DNA from: a virus
Taxonomy: Duplodnaviria > Caudoviricetes
Length of the DNA: 29,719 nucleotides
Strand: one strand, 5' to 3'
IMG/VR virus record: IMGVR_UViG_3300012952_000008
Span: 1-29,719 of that record
The position numbers were made by a program, and so were the translations under genes. Shown in pieces: positions 1-17,837 of this stretch. How positions within the stretch are numbered: position 1 is the stretch's first letter; every line of letters starts with the position of its first letter. The notes under the pieces are model-generated. The model was not told where the DNA came from, did no database searches, and saw only the letters and a list, made by a program, of their open reading frames with translations.

Positions 1-123
1 CGGCCATCGGGTCGTCAAAGGATACCTTCGGGGTGGTCAGGGTGTCAGAGCCCGAGCCGCCCAGGTCGCCCAGGCGGACCATGGTCTGTCGGAGGTCGGT
101 GCGGTCCACGAGATTCTCGTGGA
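1..123. repeat. Terminal direct repeat, left copy (circular assembly overlap)
   Basis: 1-123 is identical to 29597-29719 and lies inside the capsid ORF, which reads through the join in frame. Confidence 0.95.
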
Positions 124-208
124 TCAAGCTGTTGAAGATCTCAGCCGCCCGCATATCCCGGGCGCTGCCTGGAGACGCTGCGGTCCCTAGGGTGAGTTCG
201 TTTGCCAT
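1..208 (-). CDS. Major capsid protein, 5' part (continues across the circular join to 28866)
   Basis: ATG at 208 with GGAG 8 nt upstream; reads MANELTLGTAASPGSARDMRAAEIFNSLIHENLVDRTDLRQTMVRL, in frame with the 28866..29705 ORF. Total 312 aa, directly after the scaffold gene. Confidence 0.85.
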   Translation of the reverse strand, partial: MANELTLGTAASPGSARDMRAAEIFNSLIHENLVDRTDLRQTMVRLGDLGGSGSDTLTTPKVSFDDPMA

Positions 209-360
209 TGTTCATTCTCCAGGCGCCACGGGGCGCTCTTTTGTGTTTCGTTGTCTCGCCCTGTCGGGAGGCGTCCCCGTGTCCCCCTTCGCCCGTTGTG
301 GCCGGCGGCGCCCGGTGGGGGGTGCAATGTGTAGACAATAAGGGGCCGCCCTGGCCCTGG

Positions 361-999: not shown

Positions 1000-1013
1000 G
1001 TTGTCTCTCCCTC

Positions 1014-3889: not shown

Positions 3890-4353
3890 CCGTCACCCGT
3901 GAGCGTTTCCGCCAGCTTGCGGCGCACCGGCTCCGGCAGCTCCTGCAGCCGCTGGATCACGTCGTCCAGGCTGGCCGGCTCGTCAGCCTGGTGGGTGAGG
4001 GTGGCCGCGTCCTGATACACCCCGAGCACCCGACCCTCGATGCTCAGGAGGGAGGCGACAGGCCCGAAGCTCTCCGCCTCCCGTGCTGCCTGTGCGTGTT
4101 CCCGGACACGGATCAGAAACTCCCCCCGGGTCAGCTCCCGATCGATCGACCGGTACCCCTCGGCGATCTCGTCTAGCACCTGCCGCCGCCAGGCCTTGAC
4201 CGTCTCTTCCCCCACCCCGTAGAGGCTCGCCAGGTCCCGGCAGACCTTGCCCGACCATCCTCGCCGCTCGATCGCACTCTCGACTGCGTCCAGGCGCTGG
4301 CGCATCTGTTTTTTGGTGGTCATAGCTGGGTCATCCCGTCTGGGGCGTATCAC
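3886..4353 (-). CDS. terS: Probable terminase small subunit (HTH); start may be 4323
   Basis: Overlaps the terL start; HTH-like segment CRDLASLYGVGEETVKAWRR; helical C-terminal half. Confidence 0.6.
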   Translation of the reverse strand: MIRPRRDDPAMTTKKQMRQRLDAVESAIERRGWSGKVCRDLASLYGVGEETVKAWRRQVLDEIAEGYRSIDRELTRGEFLIRVREHAQAAREAESFGPVASLLSIEGRVLGVYQDAATLTHQADEPASLDDVIQRLQELPEPVRRKLAETLTGDG

Positions 4354-4374
4354 ATTCTCGAGCCGGTGTAAACA

Positions 4375-4941
4375 CTACCGCCACGAGAGCCCGGGAACGA
4401 TCCTAGCTGGTCCGGTGTGCCCCTGTCGCCAAACAAACCAGCCATAAGCCGCGGAGTCGGTCGCTCCTCGCCTGGTGACGGACGAGACGAAAGACGGCCG
4501 CTGGGCCAGCACGTAGACGGTGTGAAGGCACGCCCCAGGACCTGCCCAGAATGGGATCCGCTTGCGGCTCTCCAGCATCCCCAGGCGCAGGAGGAAGGCC
4601 ACGCCGACGGTTGCCACCCGGAGCGCGTGTCGGGTGTGCTCCTCTGCCTCCCCATAGGGCGGATTTCCGACGATCCAGGACGGCCGCGGGACCTTGGGGT
4701 CCCACTCCTGCAGAAACTCCCGACACAGGGCCCCACGCTGAGATACGGCGATCGATTGGGGGTCGATGTCGGAGGCCGTGACCTGGCACCCCATGACCTC
4801 CAGGGAGTCGAGAAACGCAGCCCCGCCAGCGTGCGGCTCCAGGACGTCCGGAGGGTCTCCCCAGTGGTCGTCCGCCAGCACATGCACGAGGGCACGAGCC
4901 AGGGCGATCGGGGTGTAGTAGCGGTCGAGGTCCTCGGGCAC
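4375..4941 (-). CDS. Orphan amino-DNA methyltransferase (N6-A or N4-C)
   Basis: DRYYTP, SAM-binding motif I LEPHAGGAAF, catalytic GNPPY; no adjacent restriction nuclease. Confidence 0.8.
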   Translation of the reverse strand: MPEDLDRYYTPIALARALVHVLADDHWGDPPDVLEPHAGGAAFLDSLEVMGCQVTASDIDPQSIAVSQRGALCREFLQEWDPKVPRPSWIVGNPPYGEAEEHTRHALRVATVGVAFLLRLGMLESRKRIPFWAGPGACLHTVYVLAQRPSFVSSVTRRGATDSAAYGWFVWRQGHTGPARIVPGLSWR

Positions 4942-4953
4942 CTGCGGAGCGTG

Positions 4954-5592
4954 CTACAGCTTCCGCGCCCTGTCAATGATCCACTGCGGGACCTCCGGTG
5001 GCACCGTGGACCACCTCCCGGGCATGCTGTGGACGTTGGAAACGGGCCGCCCTCGCTCCTGTGCCTCGTTGGCTCGCTGGCCCCCGTCAGCACACCCGCA
5101 CGAGATGGCCCCGGACTTGCCCGGCTCGTGACGGTCGAACACGATCCGCCACCCGGTGCCCAGGCAGTCCCTGCATCCGCCGCTGGCACGCCTCTCGCGC
5201 CTCTGGTCCCTCTGGACGGACCCAACAGCCCGCACAAGGTCCGAGACCTCCACAATGCCCCTCTTGGCCCCGTCTCGGGCTCTGTCGTCGATGATCAGAT
5301 CAAGCGCGGCCTGGAGACGGTCCAGCGGAAGCCGGGAGACGTCCTTCCGGGTGGCCCAGTCGTAGGCGTGGCCGGCGAACGAGTCCCGGCGCCTGCTGAG
5401 CTGGTAGACCGCCCAGTCCAGGATCATCGTCCGGCGCAGATCGGTCTGCTCGTGCACGGTGCACAGCGTCGACCCGGGCCGGGCCTGGTGTCGGCACCTG
5501 TAGCCGTCGCCGTAGCGGACCACGGTCCCGGCGTCGGTGCCTCGGGGTTGCTCTCCTGGGGGGATGTGCTTGTGCCATTCGCAAGCGGGCAT
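4954..5592 (-). CDS. Hypothetical Zn-binding protein, possibly replication or late-regulation related
   Basis: 212 aa, GGAG RBS; N-terminal C..C..CxxH and C-terminal CRDCLGTG...CGC clusters. Confidence 0.55.
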   Translation of the reverse strand: MPACEWHKHIPPGEQPRGTDAGTVVRYGDGYRCRHQARPGSTLCTVHEQTDLRRTMILDWAVYQLSRRRDSFAGHAYDWATRKDVSRLPLDRLQAALDLIIDDRARDGAKRGIVEVSDLVRAVGSVQRDQRRERRASGGCRDCLGTGWRIVFDRHEPGKSGAISCGCADGGQRANEAQERGRPVSNVHSMPGRWSTVPPEVPQWIIDRARKL

Positions 5593-5829
5593 GATGCTCC
5601 AGTGGGGACAGGGGGAAGGAGGGGGGGACTATAGGGGGGGTGGTTGAGGGTATGGGGTGCGGTTCTCAGGTTCTAGGCTTGGACCTGGTGCGGTCTTGTT
5701 TTCTTTTATTTTTAAATAATAAAAGGATTTCAGGGGTTTAGAAGCACAGAGGCACCACAAGCGCGGCCCAGAGGACGAACGCCCCGGCCACTGCCTGTGC
5801 TACCTCTGCGGCTGTCATCTCGTGCCAGC
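5593..5829. other. Non-coding control region: G-tracts, AT-rich patch and long hairpin; candidate origin or late promoter region
   Basis: Largest gene-free gap. AT-rich 5696-5730 with inverted repeat CTTTTATT/AATAAAAG; 64-nt hairpin 5746-5809; G-runs 5604-5657. Confidence 0.4.
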
Positions 5830-6159
5830 TCATGCGGCCACCTGCGCCAGCTCGGAAGCGTGGTGAGAGACCAGAGACTCAAGATCGGCGTGCAGCTCCT
5901 CCAGAAGCTCGGCCGCCGCTTCCTCGTAGTCGTCGTCTGCGTAGCCGGATCCGATCGCGTCGTCGATCTCGGGGATCGTGGTCAGCTCAAGATGACTCTG
6001 TATGTCGCCCAAGGCGTCTTCTTCTTCTTCGGTGTGGTCGCAATCGGAGATCGCCAGCTCTACGACGTTGAGGAGGCCCTCAGCATCAAGAAATGCCTGG
6101 GAGATATCGGCGAGGTCGAAGGTGGCAAGGGCGGTGGACAGCTTGGCGATCGTGTTCAT
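5830..6159 (-). CDS. Very acidic small protein (candidate DNA mimic / anti-defence)
   Basis: 109 aa from ATG 6159 with AGGAG RBS and its own promoter; about 28 D/E, 1 K, 0 R by manual count. Confidence 0.7.
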   Translation of the reverse strand: MNTIAKLSTALATFDLADISQAFLDAEGLLNVVELAISDCDHTEEEEDALGDIQSHLELTTIPEIDDAIGSGYADDDYEEAAAELLEELHADLESLVSHHASELAQVAA

Positions 6160-6257
6160 GTCTCGGCTCCTGTGGGGTGCATCCGTTGCCCCCTTCATGT
6201 TCCACAGTATGGACACCCTCCCCAGTGGTGTCAACAGGAAAGTGCATGTGCGATCGC
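6160..6257 (-). promoter_or_regulatory. Conserved expression module 1 (sigma70 promoter, ACGGA hairpin, SD)
   Basis: TTGACA (6234-6229), 17 nt, CATACT (6211-6206); leader GGGGGCA-ACGGA-TGCACCCC-ACAGGAG. Confidence 0.8.
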
Positions 6258-6258
6258 C

Positions 6259-6289
6259 TTGACATGCAGACACACTGCAGGCACACTGC
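6259..6289 (+). promoter_or_regulatory. Divergent promoter of the RHH gene with tandem direct repeats
   Basis: TTGACA 6259-6264, 17 nt, CACACT 6282-6287; overlapped by TGCAGACACAC-TGCAGGCACAC-TGC. Confidence 0.6.
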
Positions 6290-6307
6290 CCCCAAGGAGT
6301 CCACACC

Positions 6308-6571
6308 ATGAGCACCGAAGAGCAGCAGAAGGCCCGAACCCCCAAGCGTATCCGCAAGGTGGTCAGCATCACCGTGCACCCCAAGGCCCTGGAGGCCCTG
6401 GACCAGCGCGCGGCCGATCTCGAGATCTCCCGATCCCGCATGATCGAACGGCTGGCCCTGGCCCACTGTCGGGACGACTGGAGCGGCCCCGAGGCGATCG
6501 ACGTCCGGGTGAGCTACCACCCCGGGGAGGGGCTGCGCCTGCACAAGGCACGCAAGCGCCCGGCCGTGTAG
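6308..6571 (+). CDS. Ribbon-helix-helix (CopG/Arc-like) DNA-binding regulator
   Basis: RKVVSITVHPKALEALDQRAADLEISRSRMIERL fits the RHH strand-helix-helix pattern; AAGGAG RBS. Confidence 0.8.
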   Translation: MSTEEQQKARTPKRIRKVVSITVHPKALEALDQRAADLEISRSRMIERLALAHCRDDWSGPEAIDVRVSYHPGEGLRLHKARKRPAV

Positions 6572-6591
6572 GGTAGGGGGCGGAGGTCCCC

Positions 6592-6870
6592 ATGCCGCAG
6601 ATCACCTACGCCGGGGAGCGCTTCGAGGGTTACAACAAGCCCAAGCGCACGCCCAAGCACCCCACCAAGAGCCATGCCGTCCTGGTCAAGCAGGGAGACA
6701 CGATCAAGTTGGTCCGGTTTGGCCAGCAAGGCGCCAAGGGCAGCCCCTACCGCAAGGGGGAGAGCGCGGCCAACCGTGAGCGGCGGCGGGCTTGGAAAAG
6801 GCGACACGCCGACAACATCGCCCGCGGCCCTCTGTTTCCGGCATACTGGGCCGACCGCGTCAAATGGTGA
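6592..6870 (+). CDS. Conserved basic phage protein of unknown function (DUF5754/DUF6321-like)
   Basis: GYNKPKRTP..HPTKSH..VRFGQQG..RRH..AYWADRVKW pattern recalled from aquatic phage proteins; GGAGG RBS. Family name is from memory. Confidence 0.65.
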   Translation: MPQITYAGERFEGYNKPKRTPKHPTKSHAVLVKQGDTIKLVRFGQQGAKGSPYRKGESAANRERRRAWKRRHADNIARGPLFPAYWADRVKW

Positions 6871-6882
6871 GGAGATGCCCCA

Positions 6883-7170
6883 ATGACCAACCCAACGACC
6901 CCCCGATCTCTTGCTGCCCTGTTTCCGCTCTTGCACAAGCTCCCCGAGCCAGTGCAGGACGCGATCGCGGTGGCTCTCCTGGCCATGATTGTGATCCCTG
7001 GGTTGGCGTCTACGGCTCGGATCTCCGCTGACATATGGCAGGGCGACCGGGAGCCCCACGACTACCCCGGATCCCCTGTCAAGGCTGGGAAGTCTGCGGT
7101 TGACGACCTTGGGGACTGGGTGGGCCTGGGGGGTGACGACGACGACAGCGCGGAGGCTTCCGCGGAGTAG
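6883..7170 (+). CDS. Hypothetical membrane protein
   Basis: GAGGAG RBS; hydrophobic stretch AIAVALLAMIVIPGLA; acidic tail. Confidence 0.55.
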   Translation: MTNPTTPRSLAALFPLLHKLPEPVQDAIAVALLAMIVIPGLASTARISADIWQGDREPHDYPGSPVKAGKSAVDDLGDWVGLGGDDDDSAEASAE

Positions 7171-7171
7171 T

Positions 7172-7269
7172 GCGATCGCCTGGTGGCCCTGTGTGTTGAC
7201 AGTGTGTGTACTGTCTGTCATTCTGTCGACACAGTGAGGGGCAACGGGTGCCCCCAGGAGAACCAGACC
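7172..7269 (+). promoter_or_regulatory. Conserved expression module 2
   Basis: GCGATCGC; TTGACA 7196-7201, 17 nt, CATTCT 7219-7224; hairpin GGGGCA-ACGGG-TGCCCC; CAGGAG. Confidence 0.75.
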
Positions 7270-7494
7270 ATGAGCATCGAAGACAACATCGCCCTCCTCC
7301 GCCTCGTCGACAGCTACAGCGTTCACAGCGCAGACCTCCCCACGATGGGCGAGCGCCTGGCCCTGGATCGCCTGGTCGCCCTCGGCGTGGCCTCCAGCAC
7401 CTGGGCAGCCGGCGGCGGGTCCATGGGCCAGCTGTACTCCCGCGGTCCGCTTTTCTGGGATGCGGTCGACGCGCTGGACGAGGTGGCGGCATGA
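7270..7494 (+). CDS. Hypothetical protein (74 aa)
   Basis: ATG 7270 after the module 2 SD; first of five overlapping small ORFs. Confidence 0.7.
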   Translation: MSIEDNIALLRLVDSYSVHSADLPTMGERLALDRLVALGVASSTWAAGGGSMGQLYSRGPLFWDAVDALDEVAA

Positions 7495-7745
7495 GCGCCG
7501 CAAACCAGGCCCTTAGGGAGGCCGCCGAGCAGGTCCCCGATCTCCTGTGCTTGATGGTGCTTGTCGGGGGCGCCGCCCAGATGGTGCTGCTGAGGCCTCC
7601 GCAGCTGGGCGCCATCCTGGCGCACTCGGACCGCTTGGGGCTGCCTCTGCCCTGGCAGCGGATCAACCTTCCGAGTGGCCCGGGGATCATGATCTACGGT
7701 GACGGCCTAGAGGCCCTCTGCACGGCCAACGAGGCGACATCATGA
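7491..7745 (+). CDS. Hypothetical protein (84 aa)
   Basis: ATGA overlap with the upstream ORF; GAGG RBS. Confidence 0.6.
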   Translation: MSAANQALREAAEQVPDLLCLMVLVGGAAQMVLLRPPQLGAILAHSDRLGLPLPWQRINLPSGPGIMIYGDGLEALCTANEATS

Positions 7746-7936
7746 GCACAGAGGACAAGCAACCCACCCCGATCATCCCTCGGGAGACGGCGATCCACAT
7801 GCTGCAGCGTGTCCAGCTGGCCGCGTCTGTGGTCGTGGCCGCGGCGCACTGGGCGGAGATGCCATCGAGCCGCAGAAGGCGTGGGCAGCTCCTGGACACG
7901 ATTGATGCCCTCTCGGACCACGTGGGGCTGTCGTGA
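7742..7936 (+). CDS. Hypothetical protein (64 aa)
   Basis: ATGA overlap; GAGG RBS. Confidence 0.6.
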   Translation: MSTEDKQPTPIIPRETAIHMLQRVQLAASVVVAAAHWAEMPSSRRRRGQLLDTIDALSDHVGLS

Positions 7937-8121
7937 GCGGCTACAAGACCCTTCGGGAGGTCTTGGACAAGTACCAGCAAGATCGGGCGGACGCGGCCCT
8001 CCTGCGGCTTCTAGAGGCCCGGCGCAACGGCGCAAGCCCCGAGCGCCTGTACCTGCTCCGCAAGGCCTACGATCGGGCCTGGCTGGCTGCCTCGTACGTG
8101 CGGACGCCTGATCATGGGTGA
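7933..8121 (+). CDS. Hypothetical protein (62 aa)
   Basis: GTGA overlap with the upstream ORF. Confidence 0.55.
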   Translation: MSGYKTLREVLDKYQQDRADAALLRLLEARRNGASPERLYLLRKAYDRAWLAASYVRTPDHG

Positions 8122-8326
8122 GCGGGAGGACCTGGAGGAGGCCCAGGAGTTTGCCCAGGCGGTGGCCGTTGAGCTGCTCGGGGAGCCGATGACGCGCGCG
8201 GCCCTCTTCCGGGCCCTGGACGAGGTGCCCAAGGAGTCCCCACACCGGGAGCCGCTGACGGAGCTGGCGCGGTGTGCGGTGGTGCTGCGGTCGCTGCAGA
8301 CGAGGATCCGAGACCTGGACGGGTGA
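8114..8326 (+). CDS. Hypothetical protein (70 aa)
   Basis: Overlapping start; ends at the boundary of module 3. Confidence 0.55.
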   Translation: MGEREDLEEAQEFAQAVAVELLGEPMTRAALFRALDEVPKESPHREPLTELARCAVVLRSLQTRIRDLDG

Positions 8327-8431
8327 TTGTGTGTGTTGTTTTTTTCGCACAGTGTGTTGACACTCTAGGGAAGGGCTGCCATAGTCATCTCAACAACGGG
8401 GGGCACGGAGCCCGCCACGGAGAACCAGACA
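8325..8431 (+). promoter_or_regulatory. Conserved expression module 3
   Basis: GATTG-TGTGTG-T tract; TTGACA 8357-8362, 17 nt, CATAGT 8380-8385; hairpin GGGC-ACGGA-GCCC; ACGGAG SD. Confidence 0.8.
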
Positions 8432-8809
8432 ATGTCCAGCTACCTCGTCAGCCCCAACCACGTCCTCGCAATCGTCGCCAGCGTCAACCGCTGCTCCTAT
8501 GACAACGCCCCGCTTCGTGAGCTGGCCCAGGCAGCGACCGAGCTGTACCGGGCGAACGCAGAGGCAAGCGAAGAGGATACCGCCAGCCTTCCCGCCTTTG
8601 ACGAGGGCGACGTCTACGAGGCCCGCAAGCTCTCCCCCGTGGAGCTGCTGAAGGCGCTTCAGGGGTACCGCTACCAGCTCAACCAGAAGGCCGGCGAGGC
8701 ACACCGGGACGGCCTGCGCTGCTCCGCCTATCGCTGGTGTAGTCAGGCCCAGGCCGCGGCGATTCGGGCGCTCCCTGGATACGAGGCCGCCGACTGGTCT
8801 ATCCGATAG
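8432..8809 (+). CDS. Hypothetical phage protein (125 aa)
   Basis: ATG after the module 3 SD; phage-like codon use. Confidence 0.75.
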   Translation: MSSYLVSPNHVLAIVASVNRCSYDNAPLRELAQAATELYRANAEASEEDTASLPAFDEGDVYEARKLSPVELLKALQGYRYQLNQKAGEAHRDGLRCSAYRWCSQAQAAAIRALPGYEAADWSIR

Positions 8810-8890
8810 CGCGGGCGCCTCGCGTTGGGGCAGGGGGTGCGCTCCCTGCCCACGCGAGAGGCGAACGGATCGCCCTCAGAGGAGGAGAGC

Positions 8891-9082
8891 ATGGAACAAA
8901 GACAGCACACGGCGCAGCTTGCGAAGAAGCGGCGCGCTAAGTGGTCAGACCGCTACACGGTGCAGGTAACTTGCAGCGCCTGCGGGCACGTGGAGCGCCT
9001 GGGGTTTGCGGGCTGGTCTGCCATCATCTGCCGGGGGTGCGGCTGCACGCTCCAGCGCGGCACGTACGAGGCCCAGCCATGA
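8891..9082 (+). CDS. Small Zn-ribbon protein (63 aa)
   Basis: GGAGGAG RBS; CSAC and CRGC pairs. Confidence 0.65.
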   Translation: MEQRQHTAQLAKKRRAKWSDRYTVQVTCSACGHVERLGFAGWSAIICRGCGCTLQRGTYEAQP

Positions 9083-9723
9083 GCACGATCGACCGAGACC
9101 AGCTGCGCCGAATGGGCGTGATCATACCGCTCCAGGGCCGGGAATACTTGACGCACGATGGGCTTGTCCGCCTGGCGCACGACCACGGGATCGAGAGCAT
9201 CGAGACCCGGATAGAGAGTTGGGATCCGGGAGAGCGCGCGGCAGTGGTCACAGCCACCGCACACGGGGCCCGGGGGACCTACACGGGAATCGGCGACGCC
9301 AACCCGTCCAACGTCGGGCGGGCCATCGCCTCGGCCTGCCTGCGGATGGCAGAGACGCGCGCCGTGAGCCGTGCCCTGCGGCTGTACACCGGCCTCGGGA
9401 TGACCTGCACCTCCGAACTCCCAGGCAACGCCCCACAGCCCGCAGAGTCCCCGCCACCTGAGCCCACGCCCCTGGACATGCTCCGGCAGACCGTGAAGGG
9501 CCCGATGGGCGTGACCACCCTGTCGGCCCTGGACATGCTGGCCCGGTACCTGCGCCAGGTGCCGGACACCAACGAGCCCCACTGGGACACCTGGCAAGAG
9601 CTGGAGGACGATCCAGACGGCCCGGAGTGGGCCCTGGCCCGCATCGGGCGACTGACCACACAAGAGGGGATCCGACCTGTCGAGATCCTACAGGCTGCGC
9701 TTGATGCGCATGGAGGAGAGTGA
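9079..9723 (+). CDS. Probable single-strand annealing protein (Rad52/Sak-like fold)
   Basis: LQGREYLTHDGL...AVVTATA...GIGDA...MAETRAVSRALR...GLG...EL pattern; directly upstream of ssb. Confidence 0.6.
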   Translation: MSTIDRDQLRRMGVIIPLQGREYLTHDGLVRLAHDHGIESIETRIESWDPGERAAVVTATAHGARGTYTGIGDANPSNVGRAIASACLRMAETRAVSRALRLYTGLGMTCTSELPGNAPQPAESPPPEPTPLDMLRQTVKGPMGVTTLSALDMLARYLRQVPDTNEPHWDTWQELEDDPDGPEWALARIGRLTTQEGIRPVEILQAALDAHGGE

Positions 9724-9724
9724 C

Positions 9725-10102
9725 ATGCCAATACGACACGCGACGTTGACAGGGGTTCTGGCCCGCACACCCGAGGCCAAGCAGATCGGGGAGCGCTCGA
9801 TCGTCTCCGGGCGCCTGGCGGTGTCCCAGGGGCGGGAGAAGCCCACGATCTGGCTGGACCTTACGGCCTGGAACCAGTGGCCCGCGGCCGACCTCCTGGC
9901 CTGCAGCAAGGGCACCCGGATCACCGTGTCCGGGCGGCTGACGCTGCGGACCTGGACAGCCAAGGACGGGACCGAGCGGGAGGGCCTGGGCCTGGACGTG
10001 GACGCCGTGGAGGCCCCGCGCGAGGAGAAGCCCCGATCCGAGTACGACGACGCCGGGCAGGTGTACCGCCAGCCCACGGAGGAGGACGATCTTCCCTTTT
10101 GA
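9725..10102 (+). CDS. ssb: Single-stranded DNA-binding protein
   Basis: OB-fold pattern (LTGVLARTPE, WLDLTAW, KGTRITVSGRL) and acidic C-terminal EDDLPF. Confidence 0.92.
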   Translation: MPIRHATLTGVLARTPEAKQIGERSIVSGRLAVSQGREKPTIWLDLTAWNQWPAADLLACSKGTRITVSGRLTLRTWTAKDGTEREGLGLDVDAVEAPREEKPRSEYDDAGQVYRQPTEEDDLPF

Positions 10103-10114
10103 TCGCATGTGATC

Positions 10115-10152
10115 GCCCTTGAGTTTGGCCTACCTGGGCCATTCTCGAGGGT
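10115..10152 (+). terminator. Hairpin after ssb (possible terminator, no U-tract)
   Basis: GCCCTTGAG-TT-TGGCCT-ACCT-GGGCCA-TT-CTCGAGGGT. Confidence 0.4.
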
Positions 10153-10155
10153 GGC

Positions 10156-10264
10156 GCGATCGTGTGTGCGTACTTTCTTGGTCTGTGTGCTTGCACTCTT
10201 CGGAGAGTGTAGTACATTGGATTCATCGACGGGGCGCACGGAGCACCCCCCAGGAGCTAAGAAC
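10156..10264 (+). promoter_or_regulatory. Conserved expression module 4
   Basis: GATCG-TGTGTG; TTGCAC 10191-10196, 16 nt, TACATT 10213-10218; hairpin GGGGCGC-ACGGA-GCACCCC; CAGGAG. Confidence 0.7.
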
Positions 10265-10735
10265 ATGACCAACGCCAACGCCACCACCATCTCCCTTAAG
10301 TTCCACAAGCTCATGCGGACCGCTCGCCTGGTCGGCACCCTGAAGAACGGCCGGGGAATCTACGAGCTGTCCACGGGTGGCGGCACCTACCACGTCCGCC
10401 GCGCTGCCTTCCGTGAGTCCGCCAAGGGCTACACCCAGGCAAAGGGCCTCACGGATGCGGACTACTGCGGTGCAACCTACACCTGCCGCGACGCCTACGA
10501 CCGCGCCGTGTCTCGTTACGAAGGCATCCTTCGGCGGGGGGTTGAGTACGGATATGCTGACTGGGTTGCGTCGGCCGAGGCAGTTATTGATGCCCTGAAG
10601 GCTAACCACACCGAGCCGGCAGCCCCCGCTGTTGAGGAGGCCCCCGCCGCCACATGGCCCGCGAAGTCTCGGTCTCTTGGCCAGGCTCCGGACGGGCTCG
10701 GGGAGTTCATCGAGTTTGATTTCGACCCTCGATAG
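10265..10735 (+). CDS. Hypothetical protein (156 aa), cassette payload
   Basis: ATG 10265 after the module 4 SD; followed by the conserved terminator. Confidence 0.75.
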   Translation: MTNANATTISLKFHKLMRTARLVGTLKNGRGIYELSTGGGTYHVRRAAFRESAKGYTQAKGLTDADYCGATYTCRDAYDRAVSRYEGILRRGVEYGYADWVASAEAVIDALKANHTEPAAPAVEEAPAATWPAKSRSLGQAPDGLGEFIEFDFDPR

Positions 10736-10767
10736 GCTCCAGGCCCTGGCCGCCCGCACTTGGCACG

Positions 10768-10798
10768 GGGCCCCTACGGGGGCCCTTTGTCGTTCTGG
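10768..10798 (+). terminator. Conserved intrinsic terminator
   Basis: GGGCCCC-TACG-GGGGCCC then TTTGTCGTTCTGG, the same tail as the array terminators. Confidence 0.8.
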
Positions 10799-10894
10799 GG
10801 TGTGTGCGCACGCTGTGTTGACACCTGCCCCCTGTGTGTGCCTATACTGTCACCAGACGAAGCGAGCACCAAAGCCCGCCACGAGGAGAAGACC
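10799..10894 (+). promoter_or_regulatory. Conserved expression module 5 (diverged leader)
   Basis: TGTGTG; TTGACA 10818-10823, 19 nt, TATACT 10843-10848; leader loop lacks GGA; GAGGAG SD. Confidence 0.65.
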
Positions 10895-11179
10895 ATGGAC
10901 ACCAACACACCCACCACCCGCGCACCCTGGAGCCTGGCCCGCCTGGATGGACACGACTGCTTTGACCACGCGGCCCCTGGAGCCCTGGAGCGCGTCCGCT
11001 TCGAGTGCAGCCGATGCCACACCACCTGGAGCCGCCACCGCAACCCGGGGATCTGGGTCGCCCAGAACATGGAGTGCAGCTGTGGAGCCCGCGCGCACTC
11101 CGACGACACCTCGATCGAGTGGTATTCAGACACCGAGTGTGGCCGCTGCCACGCCCAGCGCACCGAGGGGGCAGCATGA
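10895..11179 (+). CDS. Cys-rich hypothetical protein (94 aa)
   Basis: ATG after the module 5 SD; CSRC, CSC and CGRC. Confidence 0.7.
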   Translation: MDTNTPTTRAPWSLARLDGHDCFDHAAPGALERVRFECSRCHTTWSRHRNPGIWVAQNMECSCGARAHSDDTSIEWYSDTECGRCHAQRTEGAA

Positions 11180-11616
11180 GCCGGCTAGACAACGCACTCC
11201 GCAACCTGGGCCGCGCGCACCTGATGGAGGACGCCACCCTCCGCGCTCGGGCCATGCACCAGATCCTCTCACTGGCCGCCCTGGGCAGCGACACCGCCGA
11301 CAAGGGCACAGCCGGATCGGGCCTGTTCCGACCCCTGCCCCCGAGTCAGCGGCCGCCCCTGTCCTACGGGGACCACGACGACGTGCAGGACGTCCACCGG
11401 TGGGGGCGCAGCGCCCGCGGCTCTATCAACGGAGAGGGGGCACAGCTGTACTTTGGCAAGGGGTACCGGTCGATCGTCCGGGAGCTGGCCGACAAGGGCC
11501 GCGTCTGCTGGAGGCCCGCAGAGGGGCCAGGGGGACGGGCTGCCCTGTGGCTCACCGACGAGGAGGCCGCCGTGGTCCGTGCCGAGCACGACGCCCGTCA
11601 CAAGGTGACAGCATGA
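11176..11616 (+). CDS. Hypothetical protein (146 aa)
   Basis: ATGA overlaps on both ends; GAGGGG RBS. Confidence 0.65.
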   Translation: MSRLDNALRNLGRAHLMEDATLRARAMHQILSLAALGSDTADKGTAGSGLFRPLPPSQRPPLSYGDHDDVQDVHRWGRSARGSINGEGAQLYFGKGYRSIVRELADKGRVCWRPAEGPGGRAALWLTDEEAAVVRAEHDARHKVTA

Positions 11617-12533
11617 GCGCCCCGGACCTGGCGCGGCTGGTCAAGGACCGGATGTCCACCCCCAGGGACTGGCCCGAGGTCGTGGACACCGGACCGATCG
11701 GACGGGCGGCCCTGCGGCAAATGTACGACACCGAGCGCGGCGCCCCACGGTGGCGCCTGTCGGGCCTCGGCAAGTGCGCCCGGGCCCTGGCCTATATCAA
11801 GTCGGGCACGCCTCCCAACGGCCGCCAAATCGACGCGCGGGCCCGGCTGACGTTCTCCCTTGGGGACATGGTCGAGGCGATCCTGGTCCACGCTCTGGGG
11901 GAGGCCCTGGAGGGCGATCCGACCTGGGGGCTCCTGAACGTCGGAGAAGACCAGGCGGAGGTGTTCCTGGAGGTCCCCGGCCACGAGCCGATCAAGGGCC
12001 ACCCAGACGGGATCATCACTCGAGACGGGGAGCCCTGGGCGGTGCTTGAGATCAAGTCGATCGCCTCCTTCGGCTTCCAGCGGGCAAGCCGTGAGCTGGC
12101 GGAGGGCCGGTGCCCCTGGGACCCCTCGGAGAGCTACTGGTACCAGGCCCAGGCATACGCGGCCGCGCTCGACCTGGACCGGGTGGGCGTGCTCATGCTG
12201 TGCAAGGACTCGGGGGCGGTCTTGTCCTTCTGGGTCCACCGCGACCCGGGCTTCCTGGAGGCCCTGCGGGCTCACCTGGACATGGCCAGCCAGCCACCGG
12301 AGGACGTGCCGCGGGTGCTTCCCGATGGCCAGGAGCTGAAGCCTAGAGACGACAGGCACAAGACCCGAGGCACGCCCAACCGCCGCCACTCCGAACTGCC
12401 GTGGCAATGCCGTTTCTGTGCTCACCACGGCGCGGGGTGCTGGCCCAATCTGGTGAAGACGATCGGGCGTGACTACCGAGGGGCGCCGTCGCTGCAGCTG
12501 TTCGCCGACCGGCCCGATCTGGTGTCACTGTGA
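11613..12533 (+). CDS. Cas4-like PD-(D/E)xK exonuclease
   Basis: SGLGKCAR, GHPDGII, LEIKS, YQAQAYA and C-terminal CRFC...C (Fe-S-type Cys set); ATG 11613. Confidence 0.85.
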   Translation: MSAPDLARLVKDRMSTPRDWPEVVDTGPIGRAALRQMYDTERGAPRWRLSGLGKCARALAYIKSGTPPNGRQIDARARLTFSLGDMVEAILVHALGEALEGDPTWGLLNVGEDQAEVFLEVPGHEPIKGHPDGIITRDGEPWAVLEIKSIASFGFQRASRELAEGRCPWDPSESYWYQAQAYAAALDLDRVGVLMLCKDSGAVLSFWVHRDPGFLEALRAHLDMASQPPEDVPRVLPDGQELKPRDDRHKTRGTPNRRHSELPWQCRFCAHHGAGCWPNLVKTIGRDYRGAPSLQLFADRPDLVSL

Positions 12534-12991
12534 ACGTCCCGATCGAGCTGTTGCGAGTGTGGCGGGCTGTCATCCCTGGACAGCCCGCCGCACAGGCCCG
12601 GCCACGGTTTGCCAACGGCCGCGCGTATCGTGCCGGGCGCTCGGTGCAGTGGGAGACCGCCGCCTCCCACCTGATGGCGGAGAAGTGGCGCCAGGAGCAC
12701 CCGCCAGGGGTCAAGGCCACCGGCCCCCTGGTGATGGACGTAACGGCCGTGTTTCGGCGCCCCAAGCGGATGATCTGGAAGCGCCGACCGATGCCCAGGG
12801 AACCGCACGACCGCCGCCCTGATCTAGATAACGTCATCAAGGCCTGCGCCGATGCGATCCAAGCCTCGGGCGTCATCGACGACGACGGGGCGATCTGCGC
12901 CATCCAGGCGCGCAAGTGTTACGCTGCCGGCGACGAGTCCGCGCACGTGTCGATCGTGCTGAGATGGGCCGCACCGGAGGGCGAGGTATGA
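12530..12991 (+). CDS. rusA: RusA-family Holliday junction resolvase
   Basis: RPDLDNVIKACADAI...VIDDDGAI catalytic motif; N-terminal PGQPAAQARPR. Confidence 0.9.
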   Translation: MNVPIELLRVWRAVIPGQPAAQARPRFANGRAYRAGRSVQWETAASHLMAEKWRQEHPPGVKATGPLVMDVTAVFRRPKRMIWKRRPMPREPHDRRPDLDNVIKACADAIQASGVIDDDGAICAIQARKCYAAGDESAHVSIVLRWAAPEGEV

Positions 12992-13431
12992 CACAGGGAG
13001 CGCAGTGGCTGGAGAGACGGGCAGAGGCTGAGGTACGAGCGGCCCAGCTGGTGGAGAGGCACCAGGGCCCGGTCATGACGATGATCGCCCAGGCGATCCG
13101 AGACCTGGCACCCGAGACGGCGGACATGAGCCAGATCGAGGCCGACCTCCGGATCGCCGGTCTGGTGGCCGAGCGCCTGGACAACGCGATCCACCTGCCC
13201 AACGAGCTGGCCGAGGCCCTGGATCGCCCCCTGATCTGGCTGGTCACTCTGGCCGGTCTCGGGGTTTGGCGGTCCCTGCAGCGGAAGGAGCGCAACCGAG
13301 CCCGGCGTATGGCGCGACTTGAGGTGCTTCTAGCCGATCATGGACCCGAGCTGTCCAAGAGACGCCGACGGACCGCAGAGCGGCGCCTACGGCGCCTGAA
13401 GGCACACAACGAGGGCGGGGCCGCGTCGTGA
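12988..13431 (+). CDS. Hypothetical membrane protein, possible holin
   Basis: One hydrophobic segment (PLIWLVTLAGLGVW), very basic C-terminus, overlaps the endolysin start. Confidence 0.45.
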   Translation: MTQGAQWLERRAEAEVRAAQLVERHQGPVMTMIAQAIRDLAPETADMSQIEADLRIAGLVAERLDNAIHLPNELAEALDRPLIWLVTLAGLGVWRSLQRKERNRARRMARLEVLLADHGPELSKRRRRTAERRLRRLKAHNEGGAAS

Positions 13432-13997
13432 GGTTCGCGATCGTCGTCGGCCACCGTCGGGACCGCCAGGGAGCCCGCGCCCTGTCGGGTGTCCACGAGT
13501 GGGCCTGGAACGTGCCCCTAGCTGGTCGCCTGTGTGGAGAGCTGGAGGCCAACGGACACCGGGCGGATCTGCTGTTCCGGCCCAACGTCTCAAGCGGCGC
13601 GATGGGCCAGCTCGTGGAGCGTATCAACGCGGGCGGCTATGACGCGGTCGTGTCCCTGCATTTTAACGCGGGCGGAGGGGGCGCGGGGGGCTTCCTCCAG
13701 CTGCACCACCCGAGCAGCACCCGAGGGGAGGCCCTGGCCCAGGTCTGCCGCGGCGCCCACGGGCGAGCCTTCCCAGGGCTCCGGGATCGGGGCTTGTGGG
13801 CTACCACGGTCAACGGCTCGGGGACGGAGCTGTGGATCCTTACCAGGACGCGGCCCCCGGCTGTGATCGTTGAGTCCCACTTCGGCGACAGCGAGGATCA
13901 CAGCTACGCCACCGCCAGGCGGGACCAGCTGGCGATCCAGCTGGGGATCGGCCTGTCTGAGCTGGCCGAGCGTGCGGACTCTGGCGCACAATGGTAG
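13428..13997 (+). CDS. Endolysin, N-acetylmuramoyl-L-alanine amidase (Amidase_3)
   Basis: Zn ligands VVGH, E (VHEW) and SLHFNA; catalytic PAVIVESHF. Confidence 0.9.
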   Translation: MRFAIVVGHRRDRQGARALSGVHEWAWNVPLAGRLCGELEANGHRADLLFRPNVSSGAMGQLVERINAGGYDAVVSLHFNAGGGGAGGFLQLHHPSSTRGEALAQVCRGAHGRAFPGLRDRGLWATTVNGSGTELWILTRTRPPAVIVESHFGDSEDHSYATARRDQLAIQLGIGLSELAERADSGAQW

Positions 13998-14025
13998 GAG
14001 GGGGCGACCTGCCACGGGTGACGCA

Positions 14026-14307
14026 ATGACCGACATCGAGATCGAGAAGCTAGCCGACACCCTGATCCAGCGCTCCACCGAGCGCGCCCGCGTGCGCTGG
14101 AACGACCCGCAGGCCCTGGGGGCCATGGTCGGGGTTGCCGTGGTCCTGGTGTCCGCCGTCAGCGGCTACGCCTCCACCCAGGAGCGCCTAGAGGCAACCG
14201 TCACGATGGTGGAGGAGGTCCGGGACGACGTGCGGGCCATGCGCGGTGAGGTCTCGGGGATCGATGCCCTGGAGGTCCGGATCCAGCACTTGGAGCGCAA
14301 CCCCTAG
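14026..14307 (+). CDS. Membrane protein with coiled coil (holin/spanin-like)
   Basis: TM segment ALGAMVGVAVVLVSAVSGYA followed by a heptad coiled coil; directly after the endolysin. Confidence 0.5.
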   Translation: MTDIEIEKLADTLIQRSTERARVRWNDPQALGAMVGVAVVLVSAVSGYASTQERLEATVTMVEEVRDDVRAMRGEVSGIDALEVRIQHLERNP

Positions 14308-14308
14308 C

Positions 14309-14347
14309 CCAGAACGACGAGAGGCCCCGGAGGGCCTCGCGTGCGGT
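14309..14347 (-). terminator. Conserved terminator closing the cassette array, at the convergence of the two arms
   Basis: ACCGCACGCGAGGCCCTCCGGGGCCTCTCGTCGTTCTGG, nearly identical to 15279-15317. Confidence 0.8.
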
Positions 14348-14362
14348 GGGTAGAGTGAGAGG

Positions 14363-14824
14363 CTAGCCCCAGCCACTCTCCGCGCGCTGCGTCATGCGAT
14401 CTTCATAGGCGAACTCTTCATAGGAGCTGCCGCCCTCTTCGTGGCAGCCATCCTCCTCAATCGTGGCGTCTCCCTTGGCGCAGACGGAAGCCCAGCCAAT
14501 GGGGGAGAATGACAAGTCGAACTCCTCTCGAATGTAGCTGCCCACCTCCGAGAGATACGACGCCAGCTCATCGGGGGAGACTAGCCCATAGCGCTGGCAC
14601 CCCCACAGCTCCTCAGAGATCTCGTCCAAGCACTCTTCGTAGGAGCGAAGGCAGGTAGAGATCTGATCGCTGTGGCTGCCTGAGTCCATCTCGCGCTTGA
14701 GCACCTCAAGCACAGCGTCCACGCTGTCCTCAAAAGTCTTCAGGGTAGTCTGGCTGCAGGCGTTGTCCATCATCTCCTTGAGGAGAGGGAAGAGGTCAAT
14801 CTGGGTGGTGCTTGCGTTGTTCAT
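14363..14824 (-). CDS. Acidic hypothetical protein (153 aa), cassette payload
   Basis: ATG 14824 after ACGGAG SD; about 33 D/E versus 10 K/R. Confidence 0.75.
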   Translation of the reverse strand: MNNASTTQIDLFPLLKEMMDNACSQTTLKTFEDSVDAVLEVLKREMDSGSHSDQISTCLRSYEECLDEISEELWGCQRYGLVSPDELASYLSEVGSYIREEFDLSFSPIGWASVCAKGDATIEEDGCHEEGGSSYEEFAYEDRMTQRAESGWG

Positions 14825-14965
14825 GGTCTCGACTCCGTGGGGTGCGTCCGTCGCCCCCGTTTGTGGAACCACTATGCGCTCCCTCCCTGGTGGTGTCAAT
14901 ACACTTTCCCAAGAAAAGCACACAGACGATCCAGAACGACAAAGGGAGCCCCGGAAGGCCCCCTT
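14825..14965 (-). repeat. Cassette junction repeat A (terminator, promoter, ACGGA hairpin, SD)
   Basis: Terminator 14965-14931; TTGACA 14899-14894, 17 nt, CATAGT 14876-14871; hairpin 14858-14839. Confidence 0.9.
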
Positions 14966-14984
14966 GCGCTTGCTTGCGTGTTCT

Positions 14985-15173
14985 CTACTCCGGATACCAA
15001 CTGCAGATCCGCTCCGCAAAATTCTCCGCCGCCTCCCACCAGTCGGCAGTGTCCGTGTGGTTCGGGATCGGGCGCCTGAACTCCTCATAGTACATTTGGG
15101 CCACGTCGAATATGTCGATCATCGGGCTTGTGGGGGTGACGTCCTGGGTTTTGGCGAATTCTCGAAAGGTCAT
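14985..15173 (-). CDS. Small acidic hypothetical protein (62 aa), cassette payload
   Basis: ATG 15173 after ACGGAG SD; MTFREFAKTQ...SWYPE. Confidence 0.7.
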   Translation of the reverse strand: MTFREFAKTQDVTPTSPMIDIFDVAQMYYEEFRRPIPNHTDTADWWEAAENFAERICSWYPE

Positions 15174-15317
15174 GGCGTCGTCTCCGTGGGGTGCGTCTGT
15201 CGCCCCCGTTGATGACCTGACCATAGCAACCCCTCCGGTGGTGTCAATACACTTCGCAGAGAAAACCACACACGCGATCCAGAACGACGAAAGGCCCCGG
15301 AGGGCCTCGCGTGCGGT
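15174..15317 (-). repeat. Cassette junction repeat B
   Basis: Terminator 15317-15279; TTGACA 15247-15242, 16 nt, TATGGT with upstream TG; hairpin loop ACAGA; ACGGAG. Confidence 0.9.
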
Positions 15318-15332
15318 GCGGGCGGTGGGGCG

Positions 15333-15704
15333 CTAGCTGGTCCAGTTCCAGCGGCCCAGGACCCGAGGCCCTGGCGCGTCGAGCCATGCGAAGACGTTGT
15401 CTGAGTCGGTGTCGCAGCAAGTAGGGCCTACGTGCTGCGGTCGCGCTGCCCGCTCCTGGCGTGCCTCGCTGAGCGACTCCAACTCAGCATCCAGGCGCCC
15501 CAGTATCATGCCGAGCGCCGGCAGCCCCTGAACCTGGGCGACATCCAGGGACAGAAGCTGCTCGGCAAGGAACTCTGCCAGGCTGAAAGAGTCGGAGATC
15601 TCCCCCTTGGCCCGAAGAGACCAGCGAGAGTCGAGCCAGGAGAGCAATGCGTTGTCAAGCTCGGGCGGTATGTGGGCGGCGGTGTTGGCGGCTGCGTTGC
15701 TCAT
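15333..15704 (-). CDS. Hypothetical protein (123 aa), cassette payload
   Basis: ATG 15704 after ACGGAG SD. Confidence 0.7.
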   Translation of the reverse strand: MSNAAANTAAHIPPELDNALLSWLDSRWSLRAKGEISDSFSLAEFLAEQLLSLDVAQVQGLPALGMILGRLDAELESLSEARQERAARPQHVGPTCCDTDSDNVFAWLDAPGPRVLGRWNWTS

Positions 15705-15851
15705 GGTCTTTATCTCCGTGGGTGCGTCCGTCGCCCCCGTTTGTGCAACCACTATGCGCTCTCCCTGTCTGTGTGTCAATACACTTTGCCAAGAAAAACA
15801 CACAGGCGATCCCCAGAACGACGAAAGGCCCCGTAGGGCCTCGCGTGCGGT
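15705..15851 (-). repeat. Cassette junction repeat C
   Basis: Terminator 15851-15813; TTGACA 15779-15774, 17 nt, CATAGT 15756-15751; ACGGA hairpin. Confidence 0.9.
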
Positions 15852-15859
15852 AGGTAAAT

Positions 15860-16093
15860 CTAGCGAGCCAGCCAATTGAGGCGCGCCTCAAGCCGCGCAT
15901 ATTCTGAGGGGAGGTGACTTACACACCAAAACTCAACGCCCTGCATCCAGGCTGCGCGAAGCACCCTGCACCCGCCAAAACTAGGGGCCTTCGATGCATA
16001 CCACCGCACCGTACCCTCTCCGTCTCGGCTGTCGCAAAACTTGAAGCCCTGAAGGGCTGCGGCATTGATGTCGTCTCGGGTGCGCTTGTTCAT
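15860..16093 (-). CDS. Hypothetical protein (77 aa), cassette payload
   Basis: ATG 16093 after ACGGAG SD. Confidence 0.7.
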   Translation of the reverse strand: MNKRTRDDINAAALQGFKFCDSRDGEGTVRWYASKAPSFGGCRVLRAAWMQGVEFWCVSHLPSEYARLEARLNWLAR

Positions 16094-16203
16094 GGTGTCG
16101 ACTCCGTGGGGTGCGTCCGTCGCCCCCGTTTGTGAGACCACTATGCCCCCTCTCCTTGTGTGTGTCAATACACTCTGCCAAGAAAAGCACACACCGCGAT
16201 CGC
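16094..16203 (-). repeat. Cassette repeat D (promoter and leader only; first unit of the array)
   Basis: GCGATCGC; TTGACA 16168-16163, 17 nt, CATAGT 16145-16140; ACGGA hairpin; ACGGAG. Confidence 0.9.
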
Positions 16204-16271
16204 TGACCCCCGGCCGGGGAGGGGGAGAGGGGGGGCCCGACCGGGGGGGGCACCGTGAGGCGCCCTATCAG

Positions 16272-17837
16272 CTACGCCGAGTCCTGGACCCTCAGCGCCA
16301 CCAGGAGCCGGCCCCCTGGAGAGTGCCGCACGCCCTGGATCACCGCGATCCGATTGGTCCAACCAATCTCGGAGTCCGTGATCGTGATCTGGTCCCCCAG
16401 ACGCAGCCACCCCCAGGCCTGGTCCAGCTCGTAGGAGACCGACCACGAGGGCAGCCCGTACAGCTGCGCACGCCACCCGACCACCGCCCCCGCCGTGGCC
16501 GCGCTGTAGATGGCGTCAGAGGTCTGGGCCTCAGCCACCCCCACCCCGTACCGCGCGCGGCCCGCCTGGAGCGCCCGGTGGACCCCTCCGCCGTTGGCCT
16601 GGTCCTCCGACCTGGACACCGCCGCCACCCGCTCGGCATAGAGGTTGTGATCGGCGTCGTAGGCATACCGGAGCGCGGACTCCGTGAGCAGCCGGGTCCG
16701 GTCCTCCGACTGCACGCGCCCCACGCGGTACACGCCCTCCCGCCCACGTACGAGGGACGCGATCGGGTCCTCGCCCAGGGGCCACACATGCAGCCCGAGC
16801 CCGCGGGCCGTGCCATGTACCGACACGGGGAGCAGGGGCAGGATCTGCGCCGCCAGCCAATCCCAGGGCCGGAGGTGCTGCGCCGGGTCGCACACGATGG
16901 AGGTATCGATCTGGTAGCCCTCCAGGAGCCGGGCCGCCACGTCCACCGAGACCAGATCCCACGGGGCCGTTGACTGGCGCACCGCCCACCGGATGACCTG
17001 GCCAGCTGTCCGGACCGCCGTCCCGCCCTCCTGGACCAGGCCGGGGCCCTCTGTCCAGCTGGTCCGGTAGACGTCTTTGGAGTGGTAGGTGATTCCCGCG
17101 AAGTGGTTGTTGACGTCTGCCACCGCCACCAGGCGCCCGCGGCCGTCTGACACATGATCGATCGGCCCGACCTCGTCCGATCCGTTTTGGTGCAGCGTGA
17201 CCTGTGACGCGGCCACGGCATGGCCTGCGATTAGGATATATTTATTTGATGAATCGACCGCGAACCCGGGGACAGCCTGGACGGACTGAGAGCCGGAGAT
17301 CGCCCCCGGCTGCCCGATTACGATCGGATACATTTCCCCGTCGGTCTTCTCGGCCGCTCCTGGCCAGGTGTCCGAGTCCACCCGCGCCGTCTCCGGGCAC
17401 AGCTCGCCCGAGTCATCCCAGGGGTTGGCGTCGATCGCCAGCTCCACCGGTGAGCCCTTGGGCCCATAGCTGTAGTCCCGCACACGTCCCGAGAAATACA
17501 GGAGCGAGCGCCCGCCCCGAATATATCGATACACGCGCGCGGTGCATTGGTGGAGGTCCTGGCGGTCCGCAATGAGCGCCGGCACGTCCAGCCAGTGGGG
17601 CCGGATCGTGAGCGTGAGAGACCGAGACGCGGGGGACAGGCTGAAGAGGTCCAAAGACTCCTCCCAGGCGAAGTCCTCTACCCCTGGTCGCCACGTCACG
17701 GGCTGCCCCGTCTCGGGGTCGTTGGCCGTCACCTGCTGCGGTGCCAGGTAGACCACACGCGCGGCCCACTCCAGGCGCACCAGCCACACCAGATCCGCCC
17801 CGAGCAGCTCCCGCCGCTCCCACCATCGGCGGTCCAT
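16272..17837 (-). CDS. Tail tip / baseplate hub (Tal-like) protein
   Basis: 521 aa, last gene of the tail operon; C-terminal LRLGDQITITD resembles hub proteins. Confidence 0.6.
   Translation of the reverse strand: MDRRWWERRELLGADLVWLVRLEWAARVVYLAPQQVTANDPETGQPVTWRPGVEDFAWEESLDLFSLSPASRSLTLTIRPHWLDVPALIADRQDLHQCTARVYRYIRGGRSLLYFSGRVRDYSYGPKGSPVELAIDANPWDDSGELCPETARVDSDTWPGAAEKTDGEMYPIVIGQPGAISGSQSVQAVPGFAVDSSNKYILIAGHAVAASQVTLHQNGSDEVGPIDHVSDGRGRLVAVADVNNHFAGITYHSKDVYRTSWTEGPGLVQEGGTAVRTAGQVIRWAVRQSTAPWDLVSVDVAARLLEGYQIDTSIVCDPAQHLRPWDWLAAQILPLLPVSVHGTARGLGLHVWPLGEDPIASLVRGREGVYRVGRVQSEDRTRLLTESALRYAYDADHNLYAERVAAVSRSEDQANGGGVHRALQAGRARYGVGVAEAQTSDAIYSAATAGAVVGWRAQLYGLPSWSVSYELDQAWGWLRLGDQITITDSEIGWTNRIAVIQGVRHSPGGRLLVALRVQDSA

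Follow-up and report, generated by a model that had tools for sequence, protein, structure and literature searches.

The stretch of DNA analysed here, referred to as the window, is the whole of the virus record IMGVR_UViG_3300012952_000008 (29,719 nucleotides (nt); G000 in our set), which has a 123-nt terminal repeat, is classed as complete and represents a 29.6-kb tailed phage. Its products, among 46 proteins scanned, include a terminase, scaffold, tape measure, SSB, Cas4-type exonuclease, RusA, amidase, methyltransferase and ribbon-helix-helix (RHH) protein, with no integrase and no CsrA. The best-matching sequencing run for the window is a marine metagenome, which may be its source, and none of the 21 runs listed is an RNA data set; we regard the virus as a marine phage, likely of myxobacteria. 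Ten of its gene starts carry a short hairpin, mostly with the pentaloop ACGGA, and nine of these lie inside a repeated cassette of promoter, leader and Shine-Dalgarno sequence (SD). A preliminary description had presented the hairpin as a genome-wide element that would tie accessory genes to the host global regulator CsrA or titrate this protein. We find the element confined to 6.1-16.2 kb and report that small genes are exchanged behind it between phage strains.

The cassettes and the genes behind them

The cassettes and associated features are the following, with ORF standing for open reading frame and X, L and G numbers for other sequences in our set.

6157..6234, minus strand: cassette 1, with TTGACA-17-CATACT promoter, hairpin 6174-6193 (ACGGA), SD and ATG of ORFan 5830-6159; another gene stands behind the leader in X2 and X3
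6259..6571, plus strand: divergent hairpin-less promoter and RHH repressor gene 6308-6571 (RHH_1, E 2.4e-6); arrangement shared by G001
7196..7272, plus strand: cassette 2, with promoter, hairpin 7238-7254 (ACGGG), SD and ATG of ORFan 7270-7494; ORF exchanged for 503 other letters in X3
8357..8434, plus strand: cassette 3, with promoter, hairpin 8398-8417 (ACGGA), SD ACGGAG and ATG of ORFan 8432-8809; ORF exchanged for 272 other letters in X4
8846..8893, plus strand: hairpin 8858-8877 (ACGGA) and SD without recognisable promoter, before gene 8891-9082; from folding and covariation
10191..10267, plus strand: cassette 4, with TTGCAC-type promoter, hairpin 10231-10249 (ACGGA), SD and ATG of ORFan 10265-10735; ORF replaced in X3, X9, X12 and L020
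10767..10897, plus strand: cassette 5, with terminator 10767-10796, promoter 10818, hairpin 10862-10879 (ACCAAA), SD and ATG; heads the exonuclease-RusA-amidase operon
14309..14337, minus strand: terminator-like hairpin ending the minus-strand cassette array; repeat family D5, inverted pair I12
14822..14965, minus strand: cassette 6, with terminator 14931-14965, promoter 14899, hairpin 14839-14858 (ACGGA), SD ACGGAG and ATG of ORFan 14363-14824
15171..15307, minus strand: cassette 7, with terminator 15279-15307, promoter 15247, hairpin 15188-15207 (ACAGA), SD ACGGAG and ATG of ORFan 14985-15173
15702..15841, minus strand: cassette 8, with terminator 15813-15841, promoter 15779, hairpin 15720-15738 (ACGGA), SD ACGGAG and ATG of ORFan 15333-15704
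16091..16200, minus strand: cassette 9, with promoter 16168, hairpin 16108-16127 (ACGGA), SD ACGGAG and ATG of ORFan 15860-16093

The nine cassettes share a T-rich tract, a -35 box, 16-19 nt, a -10 box and a leader, which is 39-40 nt long if the seventh base past the -10 box is taken as its first; eight of the nine were delimited at this length, the ninth having been cut short at an internal ATG by the scan. Since an A at this seventh base is nearly invariant in an alignment of 37 leaders, the pattern suggests that transcription starts there, which would leave 5-6 bases unpaired ahead of the stem. The hairpin starts 11-16 nt past the -10 box, has a predicted energy of about -7 to -15 kcal/mol and is followed by the SD 1-6 nt 3' of the stem. 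A terminator role on the sense strand was rejected because no U-tract follows the hairpin 3' on that strand; a separate and conserved terminator-like hairpin, whose activity is predicted from sequence, precedes four of the promoters and also ends the minus-strand array. A hairpin is missing at the RHH promoter (6259), which stands back to back with a cassette promoter (window 6160-6308; L015:5087-5134), an arrangement that G001 shares. Most -35 boxes are preceded by GTGTG words, which could be RHH operators. The gene next to RHH, at 6592-6870, has a small and basic product that belongs to phrog_7595 (E 5e-33), a widespread unknown family.

All nine hairpins of the preliminary description were recovered with their loops, namely ACGGA at 6182-6186(-), 8405-8409, 8865-8869, 10238-10242, 14847-14851(-), 15727-15731(-) and 16116-16120(-), ACGGG at 7244-7248 and ACAGA at 15196-15200(-). 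A promoter-first scan added a tenth that had been overlooked, at 10862-10879 and downstream of the 10818 promoter, whose hexaloop ACCAAA is without GGA; this cassette 5 loop is ACCGAA in L020 and X9, and the first ORF of the cassette is absent in X3. As a plain word, ACGGA is not enriched in the window (71 found versus 67 expected). Folded into a pentaloop and followed by SD and ATG, it occurs seven times, against a mean of 0.025 and a maximum of 1 in 200 dinucleotide shuffles; with the SD condition dropped, the seven stand against a shuffle mean of 1.74 and a maximum of 7.

The covariation of the stem that had been claimed earlier was borne out in alignments of 16 and of 37 leaders. In the smaller set, five of seven pairs changed on both sides and the score was 0.398 versus 0.089, a value reached by 0 of 500 shuffles and with slid controls at or below 0.077, and in the larger set it was 0.326 versus 0.086; as the leader copies are related, these figures are not probabilities and the shuffle controls overstate significance. 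RNAalifold recovers the same helix, and the hairpin at 8858-8877 shows four compensatory pairs. Rfam gave three matches in the window (E 2.8-4.4), none of them at the hairpin element. A selected RNA hairpin heading the accessory-gene messages is supported. The second GGA to which the preliminary description had pointed does lie on the SD in all ten window copies, but it provides no independent evidence because it is the SD itself. Outside the array, a long capsid-gene leader behind its own promoter (window 195-364, minus strand) has similar counterparts in L001, L005, L015 and L018, with a folding z-score of only -1.3.

Small unknown genes are swapped between phage strains behind the repeated promoter-leader-SD cassette. 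Contig joints in other sequencing runs fall directly behind the leaders, from 7261 to 7488 (503 other letters), from 8438 to 8807 (272) and from 10894 to 11185; a joint from 10289 to 10750 holds 254 other letters, and one from 15705 to 6160 places gene 15333-15704 behind cassette 1 in X3. The same leaders stand ahead of different genes in L020, L008, L032 and L047, and for the nine first genes, those of cassettes 1-4 and 6-9 plus gene 10895, blastp gave no match in 14 related records. For cassette 4, the 40 strain differences listed out of 74 in four runs lie to either side of the hairpin and SD, in the promoter spacer, at 10217-10224 and at 10257-10269, with none of the 40 in 10231-10256. That the hairpin sits on accessory genes had been recognised before, while the cassette as a site of gene exchange had escaped notice.

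Stem and loop in related phages

A model built from 16 leaders retrieved new copies in L047, L032, L020, L049 and L039. Two further scans of the collection, with the loop free and the stem fixed, returned 41 and 28 stretches, of which we kept only contigs sharing genes with the window; this left out about half of the 41 and about two thirds of the 28, and L016, L048, L144, L090, L122, L086 and L110 were left out as duplicates. The resulting non-redundant, hand-entered tally comprises 45 cassettes, most of them from fragmentary records, and is subject to discovery bias in both directions, in that the models favour ACGGA and the first pattern favours GGGC stems, which carry hexaloops. Patterns combining the promoter with a G-run matched nothing in viral contigs or in four records, because the relatives use other -35 boxes.

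Because stem, position and SD are retained in 45/45 cassettes and A(N)GGA in only 22/45 (7/10 in the window), the stem is obligatory and the loop constrained but dispensable. The preliminary description had regarded conservation of the loop in homologues as decisive, and on this point the result goes half against it, with A(N)GGA kept in the 22 and absent from the remaining 23, in which the rest of the leader is kept. By lineage, the motif is found in 14/21 cassettes of close relatives, in 4/20 at about 50% capsid identity and, at 26-31%, in 2/2 in each of two lineages. An A opens every one of the 45 loops; ACGGA accounts for 20 of them and ACGGG for four, none of the 13 hexaloops has GGA, and the 22 A(N)GGA loops consist of 21 pentaloops with a pyrimidine at N and one AGGGA. 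A single record, G061, has ACGGA, ATGGA and two ACAAC copies together.

Two scans were made without reference to the loop. The promoter-first scan, seeded on 30 known promoters, found A(N)GGA in 11/18 and 4/19 cases, and a scan of 12 distant records blind to stem and loop yielded three promoter-type matches (G220, G055 and G048, the last repeating G055), all of which have A(N)GGA; their stems are unrelated, and one of 8 bp carries AGGGA. The other 12 matches of the blind scan (G003, G005, G006, G008, G010) have different loops and no cassette promoter. Four lineages, the most distant at 26-31% capsid identity, thus show A(N)GGA with C, U or G at N, and the stems that carry it include at least five unrelated ones. 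Thermodynamic stability was rejected as the origin of the bias, as 751 and 511 of 1024 possible loops are predicted to be more stable than ACGGA on two window stems. These comparisons give partial support to a preference of the loop for the specific sequence A(N)GGA.

The same layout of promoter, GGGC hairpin and SD was also seen in phages that have no gene in common with the window (L093:6001, L100:6001, L102:5325, L087:3665 and L103:6001), where L093 has the loop GATGGA and the SD ACGGAG.

The candidate host class and its CsrA

Annotated phages gave weak terminase matches only (<27% identity, 11 records), and the window represents an undescribed phage family, probably of uncultured myxobacteria. 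A capsid relative was found in one of the GTDB genomes scanned, G013, in which terminase, portal, scaffold and capsid relatives are embedded among chromosomal genes. MYXO-CTERM matches number 30 in G013, 18-51 in four class members and 0 in 14 controls, and one homologue of the G013 CsrA carries a Myxococcota label; the class is presumably UBA796. No 16S gene was found in G013. Portal relatives occur in 23/182 genomes of this candidate host class at up to 40% identity, 10 of them with tail genes in the regions fetched. Integrated head-and-tail modules of the phage family (L236-L255) are present in many class genomes at 25-40% identity and may be prophages or domesticated particles. The head module in G013 (L031:521-5544) has as neighbours a Fic-like gene and the gene of a 1036-aa protein resembling a SIR2-fused prokaryotic Argonaute. 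With window 1-19900 as query, neither CRISPR spacers nor close DNA matches gave a convincing host link in the 182 class genomes, and 0/182 had a match to gene 12988 or the amidase. A preprint about viruses of myxobacteria (10.64898/2026.09.14.751636) points out that several uncultured classes have few genomes and, in its accessible part, mentions neither CsrA nor promoters.

Model R1, run on 31 host-class genomes with 144-150 candidates scored per genome, gave a best E of 2e-5 with a loop unlike ACGGA, the rest being coding or weak, and 12 hairpin-like matches in host genomes had no leader context.

The preliminary description had made its reading depend on csrA in the predicted host, and the outcome is divided. 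A csrA match is present in 65/182 class genomes (63 above the cut-off), but none was found in the other 117, which has to be read with the incompleteness of these genomes; among the portal-carrying genomes, likewise incomplete, it is 10/23 with and 13/23 without a match found. The gene is encoded by G013, which has the best prophage match, and by 21/31 of its near relatives. The class protein aligns to solved CsrA/RsmA (E 7.5e-10) and retains T5, K7, R31 and R44, with R6 replaced by Q and H43 by L or Q; R44 is essential for RNA binding by CsrA (PMC7366521). A divergent CsrA is strongly conserved across the class (L044:1444-1644, minus strand; L052-L063), with no flagellar context seen, and FliW was not found in five class genomes. 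A search for host Csr-type small RNAs returned coding repeats as well as an inverted-repeat element of CACGGAG that shows no link to csrA. The latter consists of dispersed inverted repeats of CACGGAG units (L276:1440-1560 and L301:1500-1960 in G013, with 54 pattern matches in this genome), resembles miniature inverted-repeat transposable elements or repetitive extragenic palindromes, and is also abundant in the csrA-negative G110, G115, G120 and G124. One CACGGAG pair flanks a gene resembling a GxxExxY-family nuclease.

Function of the leader

We lean towards a mainly structural 5' leader, in which the loop is an optional protein site. The hairpin would be part of a portable strong-expression cassette with sigma-70-type promoter, fixed leader of 39-40 nt and SD, likely shielding the 5' end of the message while the ribosome site stays open for whichever gene follows. 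Pairing between the G-run and the C-run may prevent either from occluding the SD or pairing with a new coding sequence, and recombination between cassette copies may move the genes. In lineages keeping the motif, a host protein reading A(N)GGA could bind, the divergent CsrA of the host class being the best candidate, which is a serious possibility but one we would not count on; the cassette evidently also persists where the motif is missing.

Two known systems are similar to such a leader. Stem-loops that stabilise 5' ends or act as RNase E obstacles (PMC9943677) likewise place a hairpin near the (here predicted) 5' end and ahead of an open SD, but the phage leader has 5-6 predicted unpaired bases first and a visibly constrained loop. 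The PeSL (promoter early stem-loop) cassettes of T4-type phages (PMC2839356, PMC4122927) have in common with ours a repeated intergenic AT-rich tract, a sigma-70 promoter, a stem-loop of G-run and C-run, an SD and a start codon, and both precede ORFans and mark sites of gene shuffling. In the accessible descriptions, the PeSL stem-loop mostly lies within the promoter and acts as a terminator, whereas here it is downstream of the predicted start, without a U-tract and with a biased loop, and the cassette has a separate upstream terminator hairpin in a 29.6-kb phage that is not T4-like. Excision as mini-circles also counts as a trait of PeSL cassettes. Judged from this layout, the cassette is apparently a variant of the T4 PeSL type in an undescribed family of myxobacterial phages. 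An RNase J-like gene in G013 scored 311.6 bits, below the cut-off of 400, and the other four genomes had no full-length match.

Several observations weigh against this explanation. A purely structural role leaves unexplained why ACGGA, ATGGA and AGGGA recur on unrelated stems, though many loops fold better, and why all 45 loops begin with A. The cassette is lacking in G005, G006, G008, G010 and all integrated copies examined, with the best host match at an E of 0.92. Both the start sites and the folding are predicted, and classical 5' stabilisers tolerate fewer unpaired 5' bases than the 5-6 found here. Further, a bare orthogonal stem-loop is readily bypassed by RNase E (PMC9943677).

Rather doubtful, in our view, is a host-CsrA regulon, in which a CsrA dimer on the loop GGA and the SD GGA blocks translation of accessory genes or protects the message near its 5' end, with the corollary that lineages without GGA infect hosts lacking csrA or have freed single genes from control. 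This reading would account for A(N)GGA recurring on unrelated stems, including all three promoter-type matches of the blind scan, and it fits the csrA of G013 with its four retained residues. Because none of the 25 phage records encodes CsrA and no small phage protein is shared (14 records, blastp), a reader of the loop would be a host protein. The same reading has to accommodate the 23/45 loops in which A(N)GGA is missing, the lack of GGA in every one of the 13 hexaloops, the 117/182 class genomes and 13/23 prophage carriers in which csrA was not found, and the substitutions at R6 and H43. Of the regulon originally proposed, the selected hairpin and a partial preference for A(N)GGA remain, but half of the homologous loops lack the signal and most class genomes lack a detected csrA.

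ACGGA and AUGGA pentaloops are said to have been poor targets in work by Lapouge in 2013, for which our literature searches gave no confirmation. The leaders do not have the loop geometry associated with high affinity: RsmE reads A(N)GGAX via the backbone with irreplaceable core bases, binding ANGGAX hexaloops best and pentaloops well where N is a purine (PMC4005645), while the phage A(N)GGA loops are pentaloops with a pyrimidine N in 21 of 22 cases, AGGGA being the exception, and four loops, including all three in G011, are ACGGG despite that core. ACGGA and ATGGA are given as primary sites in PMC4066749, where two sites must lie 10 nt or more apart for bridging; the gap from loop GGA to SD GGA is 9-10 nt here, and 11 in two copies (6159 and 8891, by reading), most of it stem, and the distance measure of that paper may differ. 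The SD is frequently ACGGAG, which resembles the rahU oligo of the same paper. Where it keeps the motif, the phage leader resembles the hcnA and RsmZ stem-loops (PMC4005645, PMC4066749) in presenting A(N)GGA in the loop and another A(N)GGA on the SD, and it differs from them in its pyrimidine-N pentaloop instead of an ANGGAX hexaloop, its borderline spacing and the absence of the motif in 23 of the 45 homologous cassettes. We consider the fit to the CsrA rules suggestive, not good. If CsrA does bind, protection is as plausible as repression, because RNase E passes a bare stem-loop and is hindered by a bound protein (PMC9943677).

It is unlikely that a different reader with an A-Y-G-G-R preference, be it a host RNA-binding protein, a nuclease or a small RNA, is responsible instead of CsrA. 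Such a reader would tolerate ACGGG, and ACGGA, ATGGA and ACGGG make up 25/45 loops, but AGGGA breaks the pattern and no candidate emerged, either as a shared small phage protein, as an Rfam match or as a word antisense to the loop in intergenic parts of the window, the hairpins' own opposite strands apart.

The notion that abundant leaders titrate host CsrA and reprogramme the cell is very improbable and was left without support: nine near-consensus promoters with up to two GGA each could supply such RNA, but each leader has a single loop site and is fused to a coding gene, with no gene-less array found, no Rfam match and only two cassettes in the 27 kb of G001, and known sponges carry many GGA motifs (PMC8545117). 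We give equally little credence to the inverted repeat acting as DNA, either as an RHH operator or as the recombination signal speculated for PeSL GGGG...CCCC stems, since the swaps at cassettes, the presence of an RHH gene and the link of GGGC/GCCC inverted repeats to T4 deletions (PMC2839356) are set against arms that change fully with pairing kept, a spacing that varies from 5 to 7 nt, an RHH homologue in G001 only of 14 records, and joints at the ATG side, not the stem.

For the phage family, the cassette marks exchangeable and probably early genes, and a DNA pattern that put no constraint on the loop was enough to retrieve related phages. Phage-encoded csrA genes are known (PMC7366521), and our search found, within the accessible literature, no report of host CsrA reading phage leaders. 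Tentatively, and contrary to what we would expect on balance, this family of myxobacterial phages may wire swappable accessory genes to host CsrA via a portable leader, so that any gene placed behind the cassette would fall under CsrA control by SD repression or 5' protection, with lineages that infect csrA-lacking branches keeping the stem and letting the loop decay. Natural loop variants on one stem (ACGGA, ATGGA, AGGGA, ACGGG, ACAAC and ACTGAA) make the CsrA reading open to direct testing. If that reading is true, the phage would couple a whole plug-in gene set to a global regulator of its host via RNA sites instead of its own csrA copy, and the loop signature would be a host-range marker as well as a first handle on the function of the divergent CsrA of this class.

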